Positions 4,194-27,226 are shown, counted from the stretch's first letter. The stretch is DNA of 64,000 nucleotides from Minisyncoccota bacterium (GCA_041664745.1 JBAYKD010000003.1:29412-93411), one strand, 5' to 3'. Translations and numbers: made by a program. The notes: generated by a model not told the origin, from the sequence alone.

Positions 4194-5399
4194 CTATTTC
4201 CACTTACTATATTTCTCTAAAATTTTAGTTAGAAGAGAGACGGATTTATCTAAATGAGCTTTGGTTGTAGGGCGGCCGAGAGTAATACGGAGAGTGTGAC
4301 CATTATCTTCTCCACTTTTACAAGCACTCTTGGAAGAGACTTCTATTCCCTTCGCATCAAGCTCTACTACAAGTAACTCACTTGTGATACCCGATATAGA
4401 AATATTTATATTATTTGGAAGCCTCTCTTTCTTACTTCCATTCAAAACTATTTTGTAATCTCCTACTTTTATATTTAATAACTTATCTATTGCGTAATCA
4501 CGAAGTTTTGTGAGTCTATCTACTTCTTTATTTTTCATTTTATTTGTAATTTCTAACGCAAGTGCGAGTCCTGCAATAGAGGCTACATTTTCCGTACCAG
4601 AGCGAAGGCCCAGTTCTTGTCCTCCACCACTATATATAGGAGAAAGTTCCACTCCTCTTTTTTTATACAAAACACCAATACCTTTTGGTCCATAAATTTT
4701 AGAACCATTGAAAGACATCATATCTACACCCAATTTTTCGATATTCGTTGTGTCTAGGTAATTCATGGCTTGTGTGGCGTCAGTATGAAAAAGGGGGAAA
4801 TCCGCTCCCCGAGGCCTTGCCTTGGGCTCCCTAAAGGCAAGGCCTCCGTCCGCAACTTTTCCTTCCTTTCTATAATGTCTTATTTCTTTCGCAATATCTT
4901 CTATCGGCTGTATTGTGCCTATTTCATTATTCGCATACATTATAGAAATTAGAATAGTATTCTCTTTCATTGCCTCCCTTACATCTTTCGGATTTATAAT
5001 TCCTTCCTCGTCTACTTTTATATAAGTCACCTCTGCTCTACCTTCACTTTCCAAAAGTTTACAATTCATAAGCACTGCCGGATGCTCTATCAGGGATGTA
5101 ATAATGTGAGGAATTTTATTATTATTTAATTTAAAATTATTTACTATCCCTAAAATAGCAATTGCATTACTCTCCGTACTGCTACCAGTAAAAATTATCT
5201 CATCACTGTGAGCATTTATATTTTTAGCGATACTTTCTCTTGATTTCTCTATAATATTCCTTACTTTTACTCCACTACTATGAATTGAAGTGGCATTTGC
5301 ATAAAATTCCTTTTCATATAGAGACATAAGTCGAAAAACTCTTTCGTCTATTGGTGTCGCAGAAGCAAAATCGAGATATATTTTCCCTTTATTAAACAT
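4194..5399 (-). CDS. Cysteine desulfurase (class V aminotransferase, NifS/IscS-like)
   Basis: Motifs HTDATQ, SFNGSKIYGPKGIG (PLP lysine) and SSKSAC (catalytic Cys) are present. The protein carries an in-frame insertion of about 20 aa (see the repeat at 4793..4853). Confidence 0.85.
   Translation of the reverse strand: MFNKGKIYLDFASATPIDERVFRLMSLYEKEFYANATSIHSSGVKVRNIIEKSRESIAKNINAHSDEIIFTGSSTESNAIAILGIVNNFKLNNNKIPHIITSLIEHPAVLMNCKLLESEGRAEVTYIKVDEEGIINPKDVREAMKENTILISIMYANNEIGTIQPIEDIAKEIRHYRKEGKVADGGLAFREPKARPRGADFPLFHTDATQAMNYLDTTNIEKLGVDMMSFNGSKIYGPKGIGVLYKKRGVELSPIYSGGGQELGLRSGTENVASIAGLALALEITNKMKNKEVDRLTKLRDYAIDKLLNIKVGDYKIVLNGSKKERLPNNINISISGITSELLVVELDAKGIEVSSKSACKSGEDNGHTLRITLGRPTTKAHLDKSVSLLTKILEKYSKWK
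4793..4853. repeat. GC-rich palindromic insertion inside the cysteine desulfurase ORF
   Basis: An 11-bp inverted repeat, GAGGCCTTGCC(4811-4821)...GGCAAGGCCTC(4836-4846), sits in a locally GC-rich patch. It encodes ADGGLAFREPKARPRGADF immediately before the conserved HTDATQ motif. Confidence 0.6.
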
Positions 5400-5458
5400 A
5401 TTTAATACTATAACACATTTGTAAAAAATGCTTTATTAGTATATACTCTCTTTAGATT

Positions 5459-16260: not shown

Positions 16261-16414
16261 TTATTTAGAGCGTTATTACTAAATTTTAATAGTAAAACAC
16301 GCTTAATTATTAATTTTAATACCACTCCATTATGGACCTGTGTGTACCGACTTCAGGGTCGGGACAAATGAAATGTAGAGTCATACTAACAGAAAAAGGA
16401 GGATAAGTAAAGGC

Positions 16415-16548
16415 GATTAATTCCTCTCCCCCTTACTAAGGGGGAGATGCCGGAGGCAGAAGGGGTCTGACCCCTCCTCAGAGCATTGCCTTGCGAAGTC
16501 TGACCCCTCCCCAACCCTCCCCTTAGTAAGGGGAGGAGGAATTAATTC
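16415..16548. repeat. Full-length GC-rich repeat element with ~30-nt terminal inverted repeats, each end itself a CCCC/GGGG hairpin
   Basis: The left end is GATTAATTCCTCTCCCCCTTACTAAGGGGGAG. The reverse complement of the right end is GAATTAATTCCTCCTCCCCTTACTAAGGGGAG. There is an internal direct repeat GTCTGACCCCTCC x2. About 41 nt of the element recur almost identically at 26444-26484. Confidence 0.75.
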
Positions 16549-19500
16549 TGTGCTGGAACTATCGCTGCATTGTAGGCAGTAATGGCGTCATTGAGGGTTG
16601 TGACTTGGGCATCAATTACATCTTGAGTATCAGTAGTTGCTCCTGTGGCAGCTGCGTTGGCTGTTATGAGAGTAGCGAGTGAGCCGACTATATGCTCGCC
16701 GGGAATTACTGATTCTATAGCACTAGCATCTATAAGTCCTTGAGCTATACCTTTAGCAGTAGTGAGAGCGGAGATGTCGGAAGGTTGATTGTTTGATATT
16801 AATAATGCCATTGCATCATTTAATGCTGCCGTCTTTGCCGTCTTATTTGCTTCTAGTTCCGCCCCGGTTTGTGCAGGAGTTTGTGATTCTACTACTTCTG
16901 GTAGTAATAATGCAGAATCTCTTGCAGGGGTGAATAATAACCAACTATCTGCCGTATAGTCAGCTTCTACTTTAGCAGCTATGGTTGTTTTGGCAGTTGT
17001 TAGATCGGTATCTATTTTTGCTACTCTGGCTGCTTCTATCTCTTCAAGGGTGGGGGTTACTTCATTGCCACCATTATTTCCATCACTGTTGGAATCTATA
17101 ATCAATGCTTTGAGTGACTGTAACTCACTACGATTGATACAGACGGCTTCCTGCCCTGGGTCCGTGAGACAAACTTCGCCAGTAAATATTCTCGTAATCT
17201 TATTCCCTGCATTTGCAAGCCAAGCGGTAAGATTATCTCTCAAAGTATTCACTATCGCCTGCCCCGCTCCATCCACTTCAAATTTATTTATACCTTCTAA
17301 TTTTAGATTGAGTTCTTTGATAGCATTCACTGATGCAGCAAGTATCGTTGTAGTATTTACTTGTCTGTTGCCGGAAGGATTAATGTTTACAGCTTCTGGA
17401 ATTGCAGTTTCCACATTTTGAGCAATGAATCCTGAGTAGTCTATACCTCCATCATATAATCCTGAATCTGTTTTCCAAGAGTATGTTTGTGGATTGATTT
17501 GCATGATAGCGTTTAGACCTAGTGTAAAATCTTCCTTTATATCCTTTAGACGTGCATCGGATGTACAACTCATGGTGCCTGCACCGTTGGTTTGAATACC
17601 TCCGCAGGAAACGAGATTAGATATACCGACGCTTCCATCATAACTAATACGCATTCTTTCTGATGTTCCATAAGAATCTCCTGTCGCAAAAATTAAATTA
17701 CCCTTATTCCAATTAGAATCTCCTCCAGCACCTTCTAATATTCCATAAATAGAAGCATAAGAAGCATTATATGTTCCAGATGAAGTCTTTGAGCTAAACG
17801 CAATAATAGGTGAATAAACACCTGGAGCATAAGTATTATTTGCTAATACAAGACCAGCTGTTCCGTTTGTTGTTGTAGCTAGTGAATGACTTGCTATAAA
17901 TGCTGGTGAAGTTGCTACACTACTACCATTAATATAAAATAGGGCACTTCCAGAATAAGTTCCTAATGAAGTTACTGGCCCAGTAGAACTAATAGATGAA
18001 GCATTAATTGTACCGTTCACATCTAATTTTGCCGCCGGGGTTGTTGTCCCGATACCGACGGAGCCGGTGCCTAATACGCTTACCCATTCGTGAGCCACAT
18101 CTGTTCCTGCGACACGGATACCGAATCTATTATCAGCAGCATTATAAGCCGAACCGATATACGCATTATTATTTCCATTTACGTTAAATCCCCAAAAAGT
18201 ATTTTCAGTTGAAGCACCAATTTTTCCTGCTCTCAAGAAAACTGTATCGGAACCTTCTTGAGAAAGAATATCAAGTTTCGCCCCTGGCCCCGTCGTCCCG
18301 ATGCCGACGTTGCCGTCGTTTTTAATTGTCATTCTTATACTAGGTGTAAATTCTGTATTAGCAGTAGCTGCTGCGGCATCAGCATAAAAATTTATACCAT
18401 CTATATAGCTAAGTATTATTCCTCTTGAACCAAAACTTGCATGAGTATTACCCCATTTTAATTTAAGAGCATTGCTTTCGTAACCAGAAGAATAATAAGA
18501 ATTATGAGTAATGAAAGCATCTCCAGCTGCGTCTTGCTGATCTAAATTCAAACCATAACTCGCACCAGCATGAATCATCCCTGCTACATCCAACTTTGCA
18601 CTTGGTGTTACTGTCCCGATTCCTACATTACCGAGATTTATATTAAATGGTGGAGTTCCTCCTTGATCAACATTTTGAATTTGAAATAACCCTGGTGATC
18701 CACCTGAAGAAGCAATTGTCCAATCAGCATTAGCAGAACCTGTATCTAATTCAATACCTGCAGTCCAAGAAGTATTTCCAGATTTTACAAGAATTTGATT
18801 TCCATTACTACCCTCTACTTGCAACAACTTTCCAGGTGCGGTTGTCCCAATACCCACATTTCCGCCACTTGGTAATAGAACAAGTTCGTCCCCGTCACTC
18901 CATCCTTCTCTGTGAATTGCCATCATTGTTCTATCTGCTCCTGCCCCACCATTCATATTAGTAGTCTTCATATTAAATCTTTCTGTATGGTCATATGAAC
19001 TTGCAACACCAGCAAGATTTTTATCTTCTCCAAAAATTGTTAAGTATCCTCCACCATAAGCACCCGTTTGAATTTTTAATCCAGTATTGTCTGTTGCACG
19101 ATAAATATCCAATAAGCCACTTGGCCCAGTTGTCCCGATGCCGACGTTACCGTTTGTTTGAAGTGTCAATAAAGTAGAGGTTTCTAAAAGCCCATCTGCA
19201 TTTGCAGAAAACTTAAATTTATCTGAATCAGAATTATCTACTCCAAAGTTCCAAACTGAAGCTCCACCATCATCCATTAAAATTTTTGTATCTCCACCAT
19301 TAGGCCCAGTTACCATTCTTATTCTAGCGTGAGAAGCTGTATTTGTATTATCAGTATTTTCTAAATTAAAAGAAGCAGCAGTTCCTGCGGTTGCTTCTTT
19401 TACATCTAGTTTCCAAAGAGGATTCGTCGTCCCGATACCGACATTGCCGTTTGATCTTAAAATAGTTAAAGCGGAAGAACTTGTACCATAGTTATATAAT

Positions 19501-22322
19501 TGCCAATCAGAATTTCCTGCTGTAGCACCAGAACCAAGATACCAATCATTCACTCCATTGGTTTGCCATCTGATAGCATTCTCTACTGTATTTGTAACAC
19601 TACGATTAAGGTAAATATTTGCTTGTCCTGTACCATCTCCTATAGTAACATTCCCCGCCACACTTAATTTTGTTCCTGGTCCCGTCGTCCCGATGCCGAC
19701 GCTTGTTCCATTATCGTAAATCAAAGAATTTCCAAATGCACTTGTCCCTGTAAATTTTGGAATATAGTTTGTTGTTCCTACTCCTGTGGTAATAGAAATA
19801 GGAGTTATTGCCAAATCATTAGTAACGCCAGATGATGGTTTTGGATCCATTGTTACAGCAGTAACAGTATTTAGTCCATTATAATTTTGATACGCCTCAC
19901 TTGTAATATAAGCTTCAATGGTAGAATAAATAGATAACCCAGATACTGATACATATAGATATCCATTGTAATTAAATAAATTTACAGGATATGCCACACC
20001 GTTTGCAGTAGTATAATTCATAGAAATAACTCCTGTATTTAATAATGTACCAGAAATATTAATAGTACTATTTCTACCGCCGTTAAAATCTACTATCTTA
20101 ATAGTTCCATGAAATAGTGAATAATTATTTGCAGCAATACTTGTCGCAATCAAGGCTGTAGTCGAAGAACTGTTATAAATTGATACTGGATTTAATGCAG
20201 ATGAAGCGAAAGCAGAAGCATGCTGGCCGTCCAACATATCAGCATTTAGGTTTGTAACTGCTGTTGTAGAAGTGACAGATAAAGGAGAAGTACCAGTAGC
20301 AATATTTGAGAATAATTGGGTACCAGTAATTGTTCCGTCCGCTAAAATATTATTGTCCCCCGCATCAGACTCACCTCCAACATGAAGCCCTCCATTTATT
20401 GCAAGTTTTGAAAGTGGTGCTGTTGTTCCAATACCGAAGTTGCCAGTGCTTGTGATTCTCATTCTTTCATTTGAAAAAGTCATTCCTCCAGTTGCAAAAA
20501 TTATTGGTGCAACAGCAGAAGTAGCAACTACAAGTCCCCCCGTATCACTTTCTGTTAATACACCAGTGGCAGGAACATTGTTAAAGTTTGTATTACCAGT
20601 AGCCGAGCCATTCTGAACAAAAGAAAATGTTCCTGTGTCTCCAACGGCTTGAAGTTGAGGACGACTAGTCGTAAGTAAATTTCCATCTACTTGTATCACA
20701 GTATTCCCGGCACTTGAAACAACTAATTGGCGTGTTGGCCCCGTTGTGCCGATTCCAACGTTGCCACTACTATCCATTGTTATGCCTGTCGCTGAACCAA
20801 TAGAAGTTCCAACGGACCAGTAAGATTTTGTACCATCTGTACCAATGGAAGAAACAGCACTACCTCCTAAAGTAAGAGGTACATTATCCATCAAATTAAG
20901 TCCCCAAGATGTTTCCGATGCGACAAGATATCCTCTTAGATAAGTATTACCATTTACATCAAGAATATATCCTGCCCCTGGTGCTGTCGTCCCTACTCCC
21001 ACTCTATGAGTTCCAGAATCAACAAATAAAGAATTGGCATCAACTGTCAGATTATGAATGCCAAGATCTACATTTGTTGTACCTCCTGTGTAAGGAATAT
21101 ATCCTGCGGCAGTCGCATAATAGTTTCCATGTTGCCCATCTAGAAGATCAGCATTTAAGTTCGTATTGAGAGTTGTAGAAGTGACAGCGAAAGGAGAAGT
21201 GCCAGTAGCGAGAGTAGATGTAAGTTGATTGTTCATTCCGATAGTTGTAATGCCAGAAAGTGCTCCTGCGGAAGTCGCTTTGAATCCTGAAGAATTAATT
21301 GTGAGAGTATCATCCACTCCATTACCGATTGTAATTATTTTGGCATTAACATTTGTTCCAATTAAAATACTTCCGGTAGTTCCTGAGTCTAAAGTTAAAG
21401 CTCCAGTTGTTCCTGAATTAATAGTTAATGCTCCACTATCTGCAATATTGTTTGTAGTAAATGTTTGTGTTCCGATTACTGTCCCTGTGATAAATGTCCC
21501 TATACCGGCGTTACTGATTCTAGTAACTCCATTTAGAGAAAGTAGACCAGCAGTGATGGCGACATCACCAGCAGTCGCAGTAATATTTCCAGTTGTTGCC
21601 GTCAATCCCAAAGTAGCTGTGATAAGTCCTGAAATTGTAGGAGTGGCTGTCCATGCAGTTCCTGTGACTGTTAAGTTACCACCGAGTGATGTGAGGTTAG
21701 CACCTGATACTGTGAATGTATTATCTAGGGATGTTGCTCCGTGGAGAGTGAGAAGACCAGGAGTTGTGACTGAACCTATGGTGTTGATGGAAGATGCACC
21801 AGAGCCAAAAGTGTTGGTAGAATTGATAGCAGTAGATATAGTAGCATTGCCGGTGGATGTGATGCCAGTGGAAGCAACAATAGCTCCAGTGGAATTGACT
21901 TGGAACAAATCGCCATCACCGACAGTAAGGAGAGAGGCGGGAGTAGTGTCACCAATGCCGACAGAGCCGGCGAAATATGATTGCCCTCCGGCAGAATAAA
22001 TAGAATAATTATTATTAGCACCCTTGGTCATATTGGTAATATAGAGACCATACTGATTCGTTATTGTTCCTGTTCCTGTAGCATTCATAACATATAGACC
22101 ATAGCGATTAGATAATGTGCCACTACCATTCCAATTCGTAGAGCCAACGAATGAAGCTCCTTGATTGATAGTCCCAGTCGCTCCAGCGACGCTGGCAATT
22201 TTCCCCCATACTCCAACGAGAGGAATATGATTCCCGTCTCCATTCCAATTTTGGGTGTTTGTCGCTCCTACTTGAGCATTTGAATATGTGCCCCAAGCAT
22301 AACCAGTGAAAGACTGGAAGTA
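16542..22322 (-). CDS. Giant tail-fibre-like surface protein, C-terminal reading frame (track ORF 16542..22088; frame is open upstream to 22322)
   Basis: About 12 copies of G(N/S)VGIGTT(G/A)PxxKL(D/S)V, two NLNAD(L/M)LDGQH motifs, a Peptidase_S74-like block (SDARLKDIKEDF...GFIAQNVE...AIKEL) and FIVAR-like C-terminal repeats. Residues upstream of the annotated Met continue the YGLY repeat pattern (RYGLYVMNATGTG...QYGLYITNM). Confidence 0.8.
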   Translation of the reverse strand, partial: YFQSFTGYAWGTYSNAQVGATNTQNWNGDGNHIPLVGVWGKIASVAGATGTINQGASFVGSTNWNGSGTLSNRYGLYVMNATGTGTITNQYGLYITNMTKGANNNYSIYSAGGQSYFAGSVGIGDTTPASLLTVGDGDLFQVNSTGAIVASTGITSTGNATISTAINSTNTFGSGASSINTIGSVTTPGLLTLHGATSLDNTFTVSGANLTSLGGNLTVTGTAWTATPTISGLITATLGLTATTGNITATAGDVAITAGLLSLNGVTRISNAGIGTFITGTVIGTQTFTTNNIADSGALTINSGTTGALTLDSGTTGSILIGTNVNAKIITIGNGVDDTLTINSSGFKATSAGALSGITTIGMNNQLTSTLATGTSPFAVTSTTLNTNLNADLLDGQHGNYYATAAGYIPYTGGTTNVDLGIHNLTVDANSLFVDSGTHRVGVGTTAPGAGYILDVNGNTYLRGYLVASETSWGLNLMDNVPLTLGGSAVSSIGTDGTKSYWSVGTSIGSATGITMDSSGNVGIGTTGPTRQLVVSSAGNTVIQVDGNLLTTSRPQLQAVGDTGTFSFVQNGSATGNTNFNNVPATGVLTESDTGGLVVATSAVAPIIFATGGMTFSNERMRITSTGNFGIGTTAPLSKLAINGGLHVGGESDAGDNNILADGTITGTQLFSNIATGTSPLSVTSTTAVTNLNADMLDGQHASAFASSALNPVSIYNSSSTTALIATSIAANNYSLFHGTIKIVDFNGGRNSTINISGTLLNTGVISMNYTTANGVAYPVNLFNYNGYLYVSVSGLSIYSTIEAYITSEAYQNYNGLNTVTAVTMDPKPSSGVTNDLAITPISITTGVGTTNYIPKFTGTSAFGNSLIYDNGTSVGIGTTGPGTKLSVAGNVTIGDGTGQANIYLNRSVTNTVENAIRWQTNGVNDWYLGSGATAGNSDWQLYNYGTSSSALTILRSNGNVGIGTTNPLWKLDVKEATAGTAASFNLENTDNTNTASHARIRMVTGPNGGDTKILMDDGGASVWNFGVDNSDSDKFKFSANADGLLETSTLLTLQTNGNVGIGTTGPSGLLDIYRATDNTGLKIQTGAYGGGYLTIFGEDKNLAGVASSYDHTERFNMKTTNMNGGAGADRTMMAIHREGWSDGDELVLLPSGGNVGIGTTAPGKLLQVEGSNGNQILVKSGNTSWTAGIELDTGSANADWTIASSGGSPGLFQIQNVDQGGTPPFNINLGNVGIGTVTPSAKLDVAGMIHAGASYGLNLDQQDAAGDAFITHNSYYSSGYESNALKLKWGNTHASFGSRGIILSYIDGINFYADAAAATANTEFTPSIRMTIKNDGNVGIGTTGPGAKLDILSQEGSDTVFLRAGKIGASTENTFWGFNVNGNNNAYIGSAYNAADNRFGIRVAGTDVAHEWVSVLGTGSVGIGTTTPAAKLDVNGTINASSISSTGPVTSLGTYSGSALFYINGSSVATSPAFIASHSLATTTNGTAGLVLANNTYAPGVYSPIIAFSSKTSSGTYNASYASIYGILEGAGGDSNWNKGNLIFATGDSYGTSERMRISYDGSVGISNLVSCGGIQTNGAGTMSCTSDARLKDIKEDFTLGLNAIMQINPQTYSWKTDSGLYDGGIDYSGFIAQNVETAIPEAVNINPSGNRQVNTTTILAASVNAIKELNLKLEGINKFEVDGAGQAIVNTLRDNLTAWLANAGNKITRIFTGEVCLTDPGQEAVCINRSELQSLKALIIDSNSDGNNGGNEVTPTLEEIEAARVAKIDTDLTTAKTTIAAKVEADYTADSWLLFTPARDSALLLPEVVESQTPAQTGAELEANKTAKTAALNDAMALLISNNQPSDISALTTAKGIAQGLIDASAIESVIPGEHIVGSLATLITANAAATGATTDTQDVIDAQVTTLNDAITAYNAAIVPAQN
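17286..17561 (-). other. Peptidase S74-like intramolecular chaperone/autoprocessing domain inside the giant ORF
   Basis: SDARLKDIKEDFTLGLNAIMQINPQTYSWKTD...IDYSGFIAQNVETAIPEAV...TTTILAASVNAIKELNLKLE matches the remembered PF13884 pattern SDxRxKxNI...(F/W)xxK...GFIAQE...P....(I/L)xELxxK. Confidence 0.7.
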
Positions 22323-24586
22323 CTATTGTAAGTCTTGTTTACATTTATTCCATACCAATCACTATTAGCATCTAAAACCGTAGAAGCTTCTCCGACCAAC
22401 AATTCTACGTAATTACTTGATGCATTATTCCCTAGAGCTATACGCCCTAAATTATTTATATTATAATTTCCGCCAGCCATATTTGATCCGAGAGTAAGAT
22501 TGCTGACAGGACTGGAATTGAAATTAATTGTTTTAGAAGAAGCAATTTCAAAAGTAGAAGCTGGAGCTGTCGTCCCAATCCCAATACGATGATTGAGTGA
22601 ATCAATAGAAAGAGTATCTGTGTCAAAAGATAGTCCATTTACTCCACCGGTAAGTGCAAAGTTGGTATCGTTAGCAAAAGTCCAAGTTGTAGAATTTACG
22701 GTTGTTGCTCCTGTCCCTGTAGTGAGAGTGTTACTTCCTGTGATAGTTGTGTTTCCATTAAGTGATACTGCCCCGCTACCAGTAGAGAAAGTGTTGGCTC
22801 CTGTTTGAGAAAATGTATTGTCTAGGGTTGTAACCCCGTGAATAGTGACGATATCCGTTCCTGCATCTCCTAATGTAGTATTGTCTAAGACGGAGAGACT
22901 GGCAACAGTTGTTGATCCACTTGTGACAGAGCCAGTGAGTATTACGCTGTTACCATAGATATTACCTTCAGCATCTACGACGAACTTTACAACGTCTGCT
23001 ACAGATGCACCAATCAGATTACCATTAGGAACTGAGGAAGTAAGGTTGATGTAAATGGTAGAGTCAGAGATGTTCGATGTACCTGTGGGCCAAGTGGAGA
23101 AGAGGTGGGCGAGAGTTGGTCTATGAGTGAAAATAGTTTGACCAGAAATTGTAGTTGGTCCATTGATTGAGACAGCGCCTGTACCTGTAGAGAAGGAACC
23201 AGCTCCTATTTGTGAAAAAGTTTTCCCATCGGCAAGTGTCGTATCTCCATTTAAAGAGATGGCACCTGTACCAGTTGTGAGTGTATATGCTCCTACTTGG
23301 GTAATGTTGTTGTTTAAGGTTGTAGGTTCATTGATAGTTAGTGTTCCAGGAGCTTCGACTAGACCGATCGTGGTAGTACCACTTAGTGTACCGTTTGAAA
23401 TACGAGGAGAACGTATGGTTGTATTGTTTAGGATTCCTTCTTCTGTAATGTTATCAGATGAACTGTTGATGGATTTGATGATGGAGTCGTAGACACGATC
23501 TGTTTGATTGGTATTGTGGTTGATGTTGTTTAGGAGAGCTAGTTCTACACCTTGGAGTCTTGGAAGGATGGATGGATCGTATTGGTTGATGTAAATGTCG
23601 CGTTGTTGCTGAGTGATGTTTGTGATTGCCGTAGGTCGTGAGACCGAAGGTCCTGAGCCAGTAGGCGAAGGATTAGTTTCCCCTGATAAGGGGACGGAAG
23701 GGGTTTGTATTGGAGGGGTTTGTTTAGGTGTTGCTGTTGTTGTTACAAGAGATCGAGGGAGAGTGACCGGCACTGTAATTATTTTAGGTTCTGAAAGTAT
23801 CACAAGGAATGAATTCCAATCTGAGACAATATTATTTGGAGCAGATAAAATTCCACTCCATAATGATGTTGCGAGTTTCTTTGTATCAGCCACTCCATTC
23901 TCGGCAGAGTCTATAATTCCGTTTATGAATACTCCCCAGCCACTCTGGATTCCATTGGAAGCTCCCAAGAGTGAATCCCCAACGGAAGCAGTAAGAGATG
24001 ATTGAGGTGCTGAAAAATTATTTGAAGAAATTTTATTATAAGCAAGTAGAGCTCTGTTACCCACAGAAGTAAATCCTCTCGTCATTTTATTCTGAAGAGA
24101 AACTGAAAATTGTTTATTTGCGTTTAAAGATTTTTCTGTATTATTTAAAATTCCAAAAGTAAATGTACTCCATCCATCTGCCAAACTTTCACTGATATTG
24201 GAAAGTAAATTTTCTGTATGAATACTGTTTGTATTATTTTCCTGGCTTCCTAAAAAGTAGGAGCCGAATGAAGAAAGTCCGATAAATATGACGAGGGTAA
24301 AGATCAAAGCATTCGCTGAAAATTGTCGTCCGAATACGTCCTTGATGGATGAGTTTTTTGTGGAGTTTTTGTGAAGGTTTTTCTGAGCAATAATGTACCT
24401 CTTAACCTCGCCTTCGGTAGTGAACCAGATCCCTCCTTTTTTGACACCTTTCATCTCGCCATTGCGTATCAAAAAACCAAGGTAGTCCTGAGCATACCCA
24501 GAAATTTCAGCTGCTTGCTTTAGAGAGATCTCTTTTTTAAACAATTGCATTTTATTTATAATTACAAGGATATCTCGGATGGCCAT
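22268..24586 (-). CDS. Giant surface protein, N-terminal reading frame: HTH domain, TM helix, beta-helix-like repeats
   Basis: 772 aa. Residues ~18-65 (EISLKQAAEISGYAQDYLGFLIRNGEMKGVKKGGIWFTTEGEVKRYI) look like an excisionase/MerR-type HTH_17 domain. A TM helix covers aa ~91-113. These are followed by FSTGTGAVS(L/I)NG repeats and one HRIGIGTTAP tail-fibre repeat. The frame ends 1 nt out of frame with the downstream ORF. Confidence 0.75.
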   Translation of the reverse strand: MAIRDILVIINKMQLFKKEISLKQAAEISGYAQDYLGFLIRNGEMKGVKKGGIWFTTEGEVKRYIIAQKNLHKNSTKNSSIKDVFGRQFSANALIFTLVIFIGLSSFGSYFLGSQENNTNSIHTENLLSNISESLADGWSTFTFGILNNTEKSLNANKQFSVSLQNKMTRGFTSVGNRALLAYNKISSNNFSAPQSSLTASVGDSLLGASNGIQSGWGVFINGIIDSAENGVADTKKLATSLWSGILSAPNNIVSDWNSFLVILSEPKIITVPVTLPRSLVTTTATPKQTPPIQTPSVPLSGETNPSPTGSGPSVSRPTAITNITQQQRDIYINQYDPSILPRLQGVELALLNNINHNTNQTDRVYDSIIKSINSSSDNITEEGILNNTTIRSPRISNGTLSGTTTIGLVEAPGTLTINEPTTLNNNITQVGAYTLTTGTGAISLNGDTTLADGKTFSQIGAGSFSTGTGAVSINGPTTISGQTIFTHRPTLAHLFSTWPTGTSNISDSTIYINLTSSVPNGNLIGASVADVVKFVVDAEGNIYGNSVILTGSVTSGSTTVASLSVLDNTTLGDAGTDIVTIHGVTTLDNTFSQTGANTFSTGSGAVSLNGNTTITGSNTLTTGTGATTVNSTTWTFANDTNFALTGGVNGLSFDTDTLSIDSLNHRIGIGTTAPASTFEIASSKTINFNSSPVSNLTLGSNMAGGNYNINNLGRIALGNNASSNYVELLVGEASTVLDANSDWYGINVNKTYNSTSSLSLVMLGAHIQMLK
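23665..23705. repeat. Shortened in-frame copy of the GC-rich element inside the giant ORF
   Basis: The minus strand reads ACCCCTTCCGTCCCCTTATCAGGGGAAACTAATCCTTCG (TPSVPLSGETNPS). The metG copy reads ACCCCCTCTGCC...TCCCCCTTAGCAGGGGGCGAAAATTCG (TPSASGISPLAGGENS). Confidence 0.5.
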
Positions 24587-24652
24587 TAAAATTATTTTCT
24601 TTACCTCGGATATCCGAGGTGATTATTCTTAATATCTCGGACGTCCGATATT
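24568..24652. promoter_or_regulatory. Three related palindromic sites at the 5' end of the giant gene (candidate operator or 5'-UTR hairpins)
   Basis: A perfect 18-nt palindrome ACCTCGGATATCCGAGGT lies at 24603-24620. A 12-nt palindrome TCGGACGTCCGA lies at 24637-24648. An identical 10-mer ATATCTCGGA occurs at 24570-24579 (overlapping codons 3-6) and at 24632-24641. Confidence 0.5.
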
Positions 24653-24697
24653 GCCTAATTACTCTTTATATTATAACAAAATAGCAAAGTCATGCAA

Positions 24698-25611: not shown

Positions 25612-25621
25612 ATTTGTATTT

Positions 25622-25716
25622 TGGATTGCTCCCCTCCTTTTCAAGGAGGGGGTTGGGGGTGGTAATTCTGAATTAATCACCACCTCGCCCTTCGGGCACT
25701 CCTCCTCAACAAGGAG
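25622..25716. repeat. Composite GC-rich hairpin element between metG and tatD
   Basis: Hairpins include CCCCTCCTTttcAAGGAGGGG, GGTGGTAATTctgAATTAATCACCACC, GCCCttcGGGC and TCCTCCTcaacaAGGAGGA. The segment CCCCAACCCCCTCC (minus strand) matches the CCCCAACCCTCCCC segment of the element at 16415-16548. Confidence 0.6.
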
Positions 25717-25729
25717 GAGAGAAATTCAT

Positions 25730-27226
25730 TTATTCTTTTCTTAAAAACAATGGAGTCTCGGGCTTTTTATTTTCTTTAATTAGTTGTTTCAATTTTACGT
25801 TTGTTTCTGGCATTAGTGGATTAAGCATTCGAGCAATATCATAAAGTTTTAATACTAAATCTTTGATCATCTCCTTCCCTCTTTCTTCATCCACTTTCAC
25901 TACCTTGAATGGCTCGGTGGCTTGGATTGTTTTATCTAGTTCTCCTATTTTCTCCCATACATAATCAATTGCCTTTTTCAAATCAAAAGTTTCGTATATT
26001 GCAAAATATTCTGTGAAATCTGATTTTTCAGATATCTCTGGGCACTTGTCTAAATACTTTTCTGATAGAGTTAAAATACGAGATGAGAGATTCCCCAATC
26101 CATTCGCAAGGCCCGAATTGTAAGCATCTTTGAAACGCTCAAGAGTGAATGGACTGTCTTCGAAGCTTCCTACTTCACGAAGGAGGAAGTACCTGAGAGC
26201 ATCTGTGCCATATTCACTCACAATGTCCTTAGGATCAACTCCATTACCAAGACTCTTAGACATACGGACCCCTCCTTCAGCTGTTATGAAGCCATTCACT
26301 ACTATCTGGTGCGAGTTCGGCACTCCGGCCGCCATAAGCATCGCTTGCCACATAGCAGCTTGGAAACGAGTATTGTCCTTACCACAATATTGCGTCGGAT
26401 TTCCATTGACCCAATACTTTTGAAAATTGGATTCCGAATTTTCGCCCCCTGCTAAGGGGGAGATGCCAGAGGCAGAGGGGGTCTTTCCCTTTTCATCAGG
26501 CCAACCAAGTGTCGAAATATAATTCACAAGAGCATCAAACCAGACGTACATCACCTGATCGGAATCCCCTGGAACCTCTATGCCCCAAGGCATTTTCTCT
26601 TTCAAACGAGAAATTGAGAAATCAATGAGACCTCCTTTAACAAAATTTTTGATCTCATTTAGTCTAAAATCAGGAATAACAAAGTTGGGATTCTCCTCAT
26701 AAAATTTTAAAAGCTTTTCACCAAACTCCGAATATTTGAAGAAATAATTCTCTTCGTTTATAGTTTTAAGTTCAAGATTAGGGTGGAGTGGGCATTTGCC
26801 ATCTACTAGCTCAGAGTCAGTTTTCTCACTTTCACAACCGACGCAATACTTGGCCTCGTAAGTTTTCTTGTAAATGTATCCATTGTTCTGTACCCTCTTC
26901 CAGAATTCCTGTGCAGCACTTTCGTGAGCTTTGTCAGTCGTACGAATAAAGTGGATGTCCTCCACAATTCCAAACATCTTCAATTGTTCTTTAAAAGTCA
27001 CAAACCCTTGATCAACAAATGCTTGGGTGGGGGTATTTTCTTCTTTGGCTTTCTCAAATATTTTCATGCCATGCTCATCAGTGCCAGTATTGAAATAAAC
27101 ATCATATCCAAGTAATTTCTTATAGCGAACAATTGTATCTGCACGGACGAATTCTAAGGCATGCCCCATATGAAGTGGTGCGTTTACGTAAGGAAGAGTA
27201 GTAGTTAGAAAGAAAGTTTTAGACAT
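25730..27226 (-). CDS. metG: Methionine--tRNA ligase (short form)
   Basis: Class I HIGH-type motif (PYVNAPLHMGHA), a Zn knuckle (CVGCESEK...CPLH) and KMSKS. It contains an in-frame repeat-derived insertion of about 20 aa. Confidence 0.9.
   Translation of the reverse strand: MSKTFFLTTTLPYVNAPLHMGHALEFVRADTIVRYKKLLGYDVYFNTGTDEHGMKIFEKAKEENTPTQAFVDQGFVTFKEQLKMFGIVEDIHFIRTTDKAHESAAQEFWKRVQNNGYIYKKTYEAKYCVGCESEKTDSELVDGKCPLHPNLELKTINEENYFFKYSEFGEKLLKFYEENPNFVIPDFRLNEIKNFVKGGLIDFSISRLKEKMPWGIEVPGDSDQVMYVWFDALVNYISTLGWPDEKGKTPSASGISPLAGGENSESNFQKYWVNGNPTQYCGKDNTRFQAAMWQAMLMAAGVPNSHQIVVNGFITAEGGVRMSKSLGNGVDPKDIVSEYGTDALRYFLLREVGSFEDSPFTLERFKDAYNSGLANGLGNLSSRILTLSEKYLDKCPEISEKSDFTEYFAIYETFDLKKAIDYVWEKIGELDKTIQATEPFKVVKVDEERGKEMIKDLVLKLYDIARMLNPLMPETNVKLKQLIKENKKPETPLFLRKE
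26444..26484. repeat. Half copy of the GC-rich element inserted in frame in metG
   Basis: GCCCCCTGCTAAGGGGGAGATGCCAGAGGCAGAGGGGGTCT compares with CCCCCTTACTAAGGGGGAGATGCCGGAGGCAGAAGGGGTCT at 16427-16468. It is translated on the minus strand as KTPSASGISPLAGGENSES. Confidence 0.8.

Follow-up and report, generated by a model that had tools for sequence, protein, structure and literature searches.

A GC-rich inverted doublet lies between a giant gene and rpsF

We analyzed a 64,000-nt stretch of DNA from a Minisyncoccota bacterium (GCA_041664745.1 JBAYKD010000003.1:29412-93411; hereafter the window), in which a GC-rich block of 134 nt separates the 3' end of a giant tail-fibre-like gene from the ribosomal protein gene rpsF (Table 1). 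The genes rpsF, ssb, and rpsR lie downstream of the giant gene on the same strand. Positions 16423-16541 pass a 62% GC filter in a window that has 32-42% GC overall, and no open reading frame (ORF) of more than 56 aa spans the block. A reading made from the sequence alone had described a GC-rich element with inverted-repeat ends, each of them a hairpin, and an internal direct repeat, and our analysis agrees on all of these points. The inverted-repeat arms (16416-16456 and 16506-16546) are 41 nt long and 80% complementary, the left end forms a perfect hairpin with 11-nt arms (16425-16435/16437-16447), and the right end forms one with 10-nt arms (16516-16525/16527-16536). The direct repeat, GTCTGACCCCTCC(T/C)CA, is 16 nt long and occurs at 16465-16480 and 16498-16513, with a spacing of 33. 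In an alignment of the block with six other full-length copies, this repeat looks like a 33-nt internal duplication, which accounts for the length of 134 nt; other full-length copies measure about 100 nt (e.g. those at loci L001, L002, L005, and L029 of our collection, described below), within a size range of 95-134 nt. The window copy is thus an ORF-less doublet of one A-type and one C-type arm that carries this duplication. The loop of its central hairpin B is variable among full-length copies and often has ATTAAT inside. The motif CCCCTTASTAAGGGG gave 3 matches against 0.03 expected by chance. A Tn3-like resemblance (GGGGTCTGAC) is internal to the element rather than terminal, and we regard it as a coincidence.

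The block is predicted to fold very stably on both strands. The RNA fold reaches -78.8 kcal/mol for the minus strand (z -4.95) and -73.4 kcal/mol for the plus strand (z about -5), and none of 200 shuffled sequences was equally stable. As DNA, the block folds at -35.7 and -38.3 kcal/mol (z about -6).

Table 1. Coordinates of the repeat block, of its parts and neighbours, and of related copies in the window
Feature	Position	Strand	Remarks
Full element, inverted doublet of two hairpin modules	16415..16548		134 nt; between giant-gene stop and rpsF promoter/leader
Left terminal ATTAAT palindrome	16416..16421		Possibly a target-site copy (TTAA or TA); suggestive only, ATTAAT being common
Left arm, A-type module	16417..16470	+	Covariance model 59.8 bits; alignment A2
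Left-arm H1 hairpin	16425-16447		TCTCCCCC-TTACTAA-GGGGGAGA
Left-arm H2 mini-hairpin	16448-16458		TGCC-GGA-GGCA
Left-arm G-run	16459-16466		GAAGGGGT
Central part	16465..16513	+	Hairpin B, AGGGG-TCTGA-CCCCT; apparent 33-nt duplication carrying GTCTGACCCCTCC twice
Right arm, shorter C-type module, inverted	16499..16544	-	Covariance model 18.6 bits, E 5e-4
Right-arm C-run	16504-16516		CCCCTCCCCAACC
Right-arm H1' hairpin	16516-16536		CCTCCCC-TTAGTAA-GGGGAGG
Right terminal ATTAAT palindrome	16541..16546		Includes the giant-gene stop (reverse complement of 16542-16544)
1848-aa tail-fibre-like ORF, Peptidase_S74 domain	16542..22088	-	Element abuts the stop codon
rpsF promoter and 5' leader	16263..16372	-	Context, outside the element; L004 and L006 align here directly after TatD
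Weak module within 772-aa ORF, possibly decayed	23671..23708	+	17.3 bits, E 1.5e-3; peptide IQTPSVPLSGETNP
Diverged doublet in MetRS-TatD spacer	25618..25728	-	29.6 bits; fold comparison
Solo A-type module inside MetRS	26434..26486	+	75.8 bits; antisense to the gene, in frame

The element did not remodel the giant protein and is not the conserved rpsF regulator

The last sense codon of the giant gene (AAT, 16545-16547) and its TAA stop both lie in the right terminal palindrome, as had been read from the sequence. The further suggestion that the element had redefined the 3' end of the gene did not hold. The last 300 residues have tail-fibre-like proteins as their homologues, and the two orthologous C-termini with readable DNA end in ..NAAIVPTP-TAG and ..LAIVPTP-TAA, followed by an ordinary AT-rich spacer with no element; the window protein ends in ..AAIVPAQN-TAA, one residue longer. 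Since the orthologues stop at the same place without the element, the protein has been neither truncated nor extended by it, and its end appears to have been altered by at most the last one to three codons. The ATTAAT palindrome, which holds the stop, is present at both ends of the element. If TTAA or TA were the duplicated target, the sequence before insertion would already have read AAT TAA. When both ATTAAT copies are removed, the ORF runs on for 37 codons through the rpsF leader, an implausible extension because the orthologues end without one. The TAA most likely belonged to an ATTAAT/TTAA target. A diversity-generating element with an initiation-of-mutagenic-homing site at the end of a variable gene was also considered and dropped, the C-terminus being without variable-repeat features.

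On the other side of the block, we compared the order of genes with that of relatives. In three of them (L003, L004, and L006), the gene for TatD is directly followed by rpsF, and in L004 and L006 a promoter and leader that are conserved (..CTGTTAGTATAAT..ACATTTCATTTGTCCCGACC..GTCGGTACACACAGGTCCATAATG..) stand ahead of rpsF without the element. In the window, a 772-aa gene, the 1848-aa gene, and the element are interposed between TatD and this leader. Since relatives without the element keep the leader, the element is most probably an insertion and is not a conserved regulatory region; we rejected the idea that it is a conserved rpsF regulator. It appears to have landed at or directly after the giant-gene stop, upstream of the conserved rpsF promoter and leader.

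A related explanation is that the block is a cis-acting RNA selected by the host at this place, either as a terminator or 3' stabilizer of the giant gene or as a regulator of rpsF-ssb-rpsR. The very stable fold on the transcribed strand would suit such a role, as would a location that follows the end of one gene and precedes the promoter of the next, and by analogy the REP/BIME and BoxC repeats of E. coli are reported to be transcribed and to attenuate transcription or stabilize mRNA (PMC3738161). However, orthologous tail-fibre genes end without the element, relatives keep the rpsF promoter and leader in its absence, and the same sequence occurs in unrelated contexts and within coding regions. 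We also found no intrinsic terminator at the element, no T-run following the hairpin (the sequence after it reads GGAATTAATCGCC), and no Rfam match. We consider selection as a host RNA very improbable, although the element may have been co-opted secondarily. As a weaker inference from the fold, the giant-gene transcript would end in or traverse a hairpin of about -79 kcal/mol, which could protect its 3' end or insulate the rpsF operon.

The rpsF leader itself, about 90 nt with a promoter-like sequence, is almost identical in L004 and L006. It is possibly an S6:S18 autoregulatory leader; a search of the whole window returned no Rfam family at threshold for it.

The block belongs to a dispersed family of two-hairpin repeats

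The unit of the family is a module of about 45 nt that consists of a 7-bp GC hairpin H1 (CTCCCCC-loop-GGGGGAG), one base, a mini-hairpin H2 of 4-6 bp, and a G-run (GAGGGGGT). The H2 hairpin reads TGCC-GGA-GGCA or a compensated variant of it, such as TGCCC-GAA-GGGCA, TGTCAC-GGA-GTGACA, GCT-GTA-AGC, TGTCC-GAA-GGACG, and GCCC-GAA-GGGC. A shorter variant lacks H2 and reads C-run, AACC, and then H1. Modules occur alone, as inverted doublets, or as inverted repeats around a small DUF559 gene. Scanning with exact patterns of 20-21 nt, by which our loci were ascertained, we found the module in 5 metagenome-assembled genomes of the candidate phyla radiation (CPR) and at 38 metagenome loci. Of the latter, 35 are real and three are chance matches without a hairpin. 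Their contexts vary, with solo modules and doublets on both AT-rich and GC-rich contigs.

We scored the window and the other loci, 325 kb in all, with a covariance model of the module (R1) and obtained 152 matches at E values of up to 1. In the alignment of 150 matches, 97.2% of the cells are paired, compared with 55-78% when the partners are slid; two-sided, compensatory changes occur at all 12 pairs, and compensated cells number 121 against 19.9 +/- 3.6 in shuffles. These figures lean towards structure, as the alignment was fitted to the model and palindromes are read on both strands. The wobble pairs are one-sided, with about 30 U-G and 1 G-U (alignment A7, all module matches), which hints that the G-rich strand is the folding strand.

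The model was also applied to the related sites in the window. Two that had been proposed from the sequence alone, at 26444-26484 and 25622-25716, are real relatives: the first is a solo module and clearly related, and the second is a doublet whose better half (25675-25728, minus strand) has an E of 5e-8 and whose partner (25622-25664) scores 10.6 bits. This doublet folds into the same four hairpins as the canonical copy by way of compensatory stems, namely H1 (CTCCTCC/GGAGGAG), H2 (GCCC-GAA-GGGC), hairpin B with an ATTAAT loop, and then H1'. The third proposed site, at 23665-23705, gave only a weak match and is a doubtful relative. The MetRS-TatD spacer (MetRS, methionyl-tRNA synthetase) that holds the doublet is filled in the window and in L007 and empty in L003 and L006. 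Copies are thus present at some orthologous sites and absent from the same sites in closest relatives, meaning that they are gained and lost.

The sequence-only reading had placed the block in a GC-rich hairpin repeat family and was aware of no described family of this kind in CPR genomes. Membership as a non-coding element in a dispersed family was confirmed, with further copies in many genomes, and the family is not specific to CPR. In a BLAST search against plasmids, the module GGGGGAGATGCCGGCAGGCAGAGGGGGT, which has one extra base in the H2 loop, matched at 809 places in 179 Rhizobiaceae replicons with 80-100% identity, and nearly all of the matches listed have no annotated feature beneath them. 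These rhizobial repeats score 41-43 bits with model R1, and the A-type module is nearly identical to the multi-copy repeat of Sinorhizobium, Rhizobium, and Shinella. Hundreds of intergenic repeats have been described in Sinorhizobium meliloti, including RIME (209), the MOTIF A/B/C palindromes (256), and Sm-1 to Sm-5 (PMC3738161; PMC2573895). The C-type arm (C-run, AACC, H1) in turn resembles a repeat found at ycjD and upstream of fabI in E. coli, with the likeness confined to the architecture and an 11-nt core. This E. coli repeat occurs in 4907 of 5426 genomes, at a median of 14 and up to 24 BLAST places per genome. It is probably BoxC, a family first described upstream of envM (fabI); this identification draws on copy number, and so would one of the rhizobial repeat with RIME or another named family. 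The copy number fits the published 22-32 copies of BoxC, a repeat of 56 bp (PMC2267715). BoxC, RIME, and the other rhizobial families have been published as intergenic repeats (PMC2573895, PMC3738161), and in these papers we found no report of in-frame copies or of a partner gene. We found no match in a scan of viral contigs (0 matches) or in a BLAST search of phages. In Rfam, a search with E up to 10 gave a miRNA hairpin model as its best match, at 26 bits where the threshold is 84 bits, and at gathering thresholds the whole window returned three tRNAs only. Together, these observations identify a dispersed, structurally constrained repeat family that crosses phyla and is gained and lost at orthologous sites.

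DUF559 nuclease genes are embedded in the modules

In L048, the closest relative of the window, the MetRS-TatD spacer holds a 116-aa DUF559 gene that sits between exact inverted hairpins of 22 nt, with C-run and G-run repeats on the outside. A search of all ORFs in the loci yielded five CPR DUF559 genes (L015, L018, L034, L044, and L048; Pfam 107-118 bits), and all five are bracketed in the order C-run..H1, gene, H1..G-run. The Pfam domain extends to about residue 114 in the L015, L018, and L034 proteins, and the C-terminal residues beyond it lie with the stop codon inside the 3' module (..LRPAKGEVL*, ..LRPAKGEVSEGRRG*, and ..TPPPNVGGGREGYN*, respectively). The L044 gene has a longer tail that runs across several modules, and the L048 gene stops before the 3' hairpin. 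The L015 unit sits between MetRS and TatD and the L018 unit before ligA, both with A-type modules. The outer end of the left module (AACCCCCTCTGCC) is exactly where the similarity between the two begins, its last strongly matching block is the G-run of the right module, and it ends just after GGAGGGGGT with a short AT-rich tail. The left modules are identical at 41 of 42 positions, and the proteins share just 55% identity. Since the similarity is bounded by modules at different loci, gene and modules together make up a single discrete cassette. We found such a DUF559 cassette in four of the MetRS-TatD spacers examined, an ORF-less element in two (window and L007), an unrelated small ORF in one (L004), and nothing in two.

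The same arrangement is found outside CPR. We inspected nine further DUF559 loci found by tblastn (Shinella, S. meliloti, Synechocystis, Deinococcus, E. coli, Neisseria gonorrhoeae, Azospirillum, Picosynechococcus, and Sphingomonas), and in all nine the gene has GC-rich hairpin modules with this architecture next to it, on one side or on both. The DUF559 gene is thus bracketed or abutted by modules in 14 of the 14 loci examined, from CPR to ycjD of E. coli. At the S. meliloti locus, the modules form a pair of 135-nt doublets that are inverted with respect to each other. In E. coli 042 (L060, sapF-ycjD-fabI; also L055), ycjD ends in a BoxC-like repeat, and the spacer ahead of fabI is taken up by two more copies; the best match of the E. 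coli repeat overlaps the 3' end of ycjD, for which the chance for a given gene is about 0.002. DUF559 genes are therefore physically embedded in such repeats, which suggests that they are the autonomous partner of the modules. On a plasmid of Synechocystis sp. B12 (L053), a DUF559 gene with GC hairpins apparently lies inside a DUF1156 gene that is annotated as two pieces.

The only solved close relative of DUF559 is the uncharacterised 3HRL, and we know of no cleavage site or activity for the family. The Vsr/DUF559 clan includes the intron-encoded homing endonuclease I-Bth0305I (PMC3424549, table 1), and a small nuclease gene that is present or absent at a fixed intergenic site as a discrete cassette is reminiscent of free-standing homing endonuclease genes. 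Those genes do not normally generate dispersed gene-less repeats. We found no literature that links DUF559 or ycjD to repeats such as BoxC, and none on the module sequence.

This arrangement resembles that of the REP/BIME and REPIN-RAYT systems of E. coli and Pseudomonas, in which short GC-rich hairpin units number from dozens to hundreds, occur singly or as inverted doublets with a long-hairpin fold, are mostly intergenic and transcribed with neighbouring genes, and have one small gene between inverted copies. An explanation along these lines is that a RAYT, a Y1 HUH transposase of the IS200/IS605 kind, moved the element by acting on single-stranded hairpins. The hairpin unit of about 45 nt, found as singlets and inverted doublets with conserved stems and variable loops, is what this would predict, and the U-G strand bias hints that one single strand is functional. 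However, the gene flanked by modules is a DUF559 PD-(D/E)XK nuclease and not a RAYT, and copies lie inside genes as well as outside them. No Y1-transposase-like ORF was found among 2643 ORFs (window and L001-L048), although this test is a weak one. The modules also differ from REP in showing no GTAG-type tag, in having a unit of two hairpins and a G-run, and in their in-frame genic copies. Mobilization by a RAYT is thus improbable in our view.

Modules lie in frame inside protein-coding genes

Copies of the module also lie within coding sequences. In the window, the MetRS gene (25730-27226, minus strand) reads the module antisense as TPSASGISPLAGGE, an insert in a variable loop that adds a net 54 nt in comparison with L048 (the DNA of homologue P0020), where the site is empty. 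The same protein is P0019 (from a JGI contig), which has a later start, and an exact look-up of the window form returned no record. Its nearest relatives (P0020, P0021, P0024, and P0025; 86-89% identity) are without the module, and the common state of this loop among 120 close MetRS homologues is 6-7 residues (PDNLEN, GSSDESN). The same peptide, from nearly the same nucleotides, occurs in the same loop (after YISTLGW) of L003, L004, L006, L030, L034, and L044. In L007, this loop is empty, as it is in L048, and a different loop of the C-terminal domain holds the module, read in the same frame. In a rough tree, module-bearing MetRS proteins fall in at least seven places or lineages, with empty sisters beside them, and decayed versions are also found (TPSAFGLSPLAGGE, TPSAFGISLLAGSE, and a GAGGEESN remnant). 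Codon identity over synonymous-comparable pairs is 0.87 in the module and 0.51 and 0.60 in flanking conserved blocks, a difference that overstates the conservation because half of the module was fixed by the search pattern.

Beyond MetRS, internal in-frame modules confirmed by Pfam lie in ArgRS, IMPDH, an Asp/Glu racemase, MnmE, and an NAD-epimerase (two copies), and a full doublet lies in frame within a linker of FtsK. These in-gene modules use at least three reading frames, of which TPSASGISP is the commonest. A profile of the module peptide with artificial random flanks returned one candidate host protein only. We found no literature reports of in-frame palindromes in CPR.

In-frame copies of this kind recall the Rickettsia palindromic elements (RPE), which likewise occur as palindromes in frame at permissive surface positions of coding genes, including essential ones, as well as in intergenic copies, in a reduced and AT-rich host genome. 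The MetRS, ArgRS, IMPDH, MnmE, racemase, epimerase, and FtsK copies share this in-frame property, whereas the copy at 16415-16548 is itself non-coding. The comparison is one by description, with no apparent relationship in sequence, and the solo modules are shorter (14-18 codons), belong to a family that crosses phyla, and have a candidate partner gene. To our knowledge, no partner gene is known for RPEs.

Two further observations concern these proteins. The loops after YISTLGW and after SEKYL of the MetRS homologues (P0020-P0138) hold many other, unrelated-looking inserts that are scattered over the tree (SPSPYKGEE, KTCAxGTCSAEH..C.RP, FADAQDLRP, HHPALKGTPPQAGGE, SAEASxG, SPHLMEEGVGGG, and LPLTKGEEKGGG), which indicates either a hotspot for short insertions or allele exchange. 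The NAD-epimerase of L037, on a contig with 27% GC, carries its two modules in one frame about 45 residues apart (FSPFGGDAEGRGG and FSPFGGDAGGRGG).

The in-gene copies also bear on the more conventional idea that the block is a classical miniature inverted-repeat transposable element (MITE), a deletion derivative of an insertion sequence with a DDE transposase (e.g. IS630/Tc1-like) that was moved in trans and duplicated TA or TTAA. The block has terminal inverted repeats and ATTAAT at both ends, and the copies are gene-less, multi-copy, and 95-134 nt long; the centres of L001 and L002 differ by one extra TTAA, the solo module of L026 has ATTAAT on both sides, and ATTAAT adjoins modules in L005 and L002 as well. 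In being gene-less, with inverted ends and long RNA hairpins, and in a location at the ends of genes from which transcript ends can be altered, the copies resemble the 100-150 nt Correia/NEMIS elements of Neisseria and the ERIC, RUP, and BOX elements. However, ATTAAT flanks are absent from the in-gene copies, and ATTAAT is frequent by chance. Single modules of 45 nt exist, half-elements are common, and each apparent terminal repeat is itself a palindrome, whereas a TA duplication and a DDE parent are the features of Correia elements. In 325 kb of loci, matching ends were found to enclose no gene other than DUF559, DDE transposases not having been searched for systematically. The sequence-only reading had spoken of a MITE- or REP-like element without a transposase; consistent with this, neither of the two kinds of ORF looked for, Y1-like and DUF559, was found in the window. 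We regard a MITE in the classical sense as unlikely, if less so than a RAYT-driven element.

A proposed partnership of modules and DUF559

Overall, we favour the explanation, to which we give a probability of roughly three in four, that the block represents one non-autonomous member of a widespread family of GC-rich, nested-palindromic repeats and is neither a gene nor a conserved regulator. We propose that the DUF559 cassette acts as the autonomous partner of the gene-less modules, and that its nuclease would recognize or cut the hairpin modules, the substrate probably being the G-rich strand in single-stranded or extruded form. Modules would then be copied to new sites by repair or recombination, with ATTAAT/TTAA as a possible insertion target, and survivors would be seen only where they are tolerated, that is, in intergenic spacers, protein surface loops, and stop-free frames. 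A broader version, which we put forward tentatively and hold to be rather less than an even chance, is that DUF559 proteins (YcjD and others) are the partner enzymes of one cross-phylum superfamily of two-hairpin repeats that takes in the BoxC-like, rhizobial, and CPR modules. Such a system would be built like RAYT and REP but on a Vsr-like PD-(D/E)XK enzyme, and in CPR its gene-less modules would repeatedly have entered essential proteins, MetRS among them, in frame.

Several observations weigh against this explanation. No empty orthologous site was available for this copy from which its own insertion, its target duplication, and its age could be read. ATTAAT is common in AT-rich DNA, with 58 occurrences in the window, and the apparent sequence conservation of the family is inflated because the loci were chosen by an exact pattern. 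The window itself contains no DUF559 ORF, and the similarity of DUF559 proteins does not track the module type: the idea that DUF559 subfamilies co-vary with module type was not supported, as L015 and L018 have A-type ends and yet share only 55% identity, compared with 60% for L015 and L034, whose ends differ. The association of DUF559 with modules is moreover correlative, and the cassette might home into existing palindromes rather than mobilize them. The order of parts is also reversed, H1 being outermost in doublets of the window type and the C-run and G-run outermost in DUF559 units. A simple origin as a deleted cassette therefore fits poorly, and the window doublet looks more like the right and left ends of a cassette abutted across ATTAAT. 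Finally, any effect of the element on expression is a prediction from the fold.

Other features of the window

The region 16542-24586, which holds the 772-aa and 1848-aa genes, forms an island between TatD and rpsF, which are adjacent in L003, L004, and L006. The closest relative, L048, has the TatD side of this island in common with the window. In the gap between TatD and the 772-aa gene (about 24600-24680, minus strand), a promoter-like site (TTGCAT..TATAAT) follows the TatD terminator hairpin and is itself followed by two related palindromes, ATCGGACGTCCGAGAT and CCTCGGATATCCGAGG, that are conserved in L048 and are possibly an operator.

Elsewhere, a second GC-rich perfect hairpin (GAGGCCTTGCCTT..AAGGCAAGGCCTC, 4787-4858) lies in frame inside an ORF (4197..5432, minus strand) for a class-V aminotransferase (cysteine desulfurase-like), where it encodes approximately KVADGGLAFREPKARPRGADF. 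The Pfam match of this ORF is split into two stretches around the hairpin, which is probably a second in-frame palindromic insert of a different family.

Significance

By itself, the block of 134 nt is no more than an ordinary selfish repeat, next to a stop codon by happenstance. Its family is of wider interest, in that Patescibacteria and Alphaproteobacteria share, with hardly a base changed, a module of about 45 nt with two hairpins. As judged from sequence comparison, the element would combine palindromic repeats of the REP, BoxC, and RIME kind, in-frame copies like those of RPEs, and a candidate nuclease partner. In CPR, modules lie in frame in loops of essential enzymes, and one MetRS loop has been hit repeatedly, by the module and by other inserts; such Rickettsia-like in-frame insertion bears on how the proteins of reduced genomes acquire inserts. 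If DUF559 does recognize these repeats, simple biochemistry in E. coli could test how repeats of the BoxC and RIME types arose and move, and also the function of DUF559, a large family of domains of unknown function.

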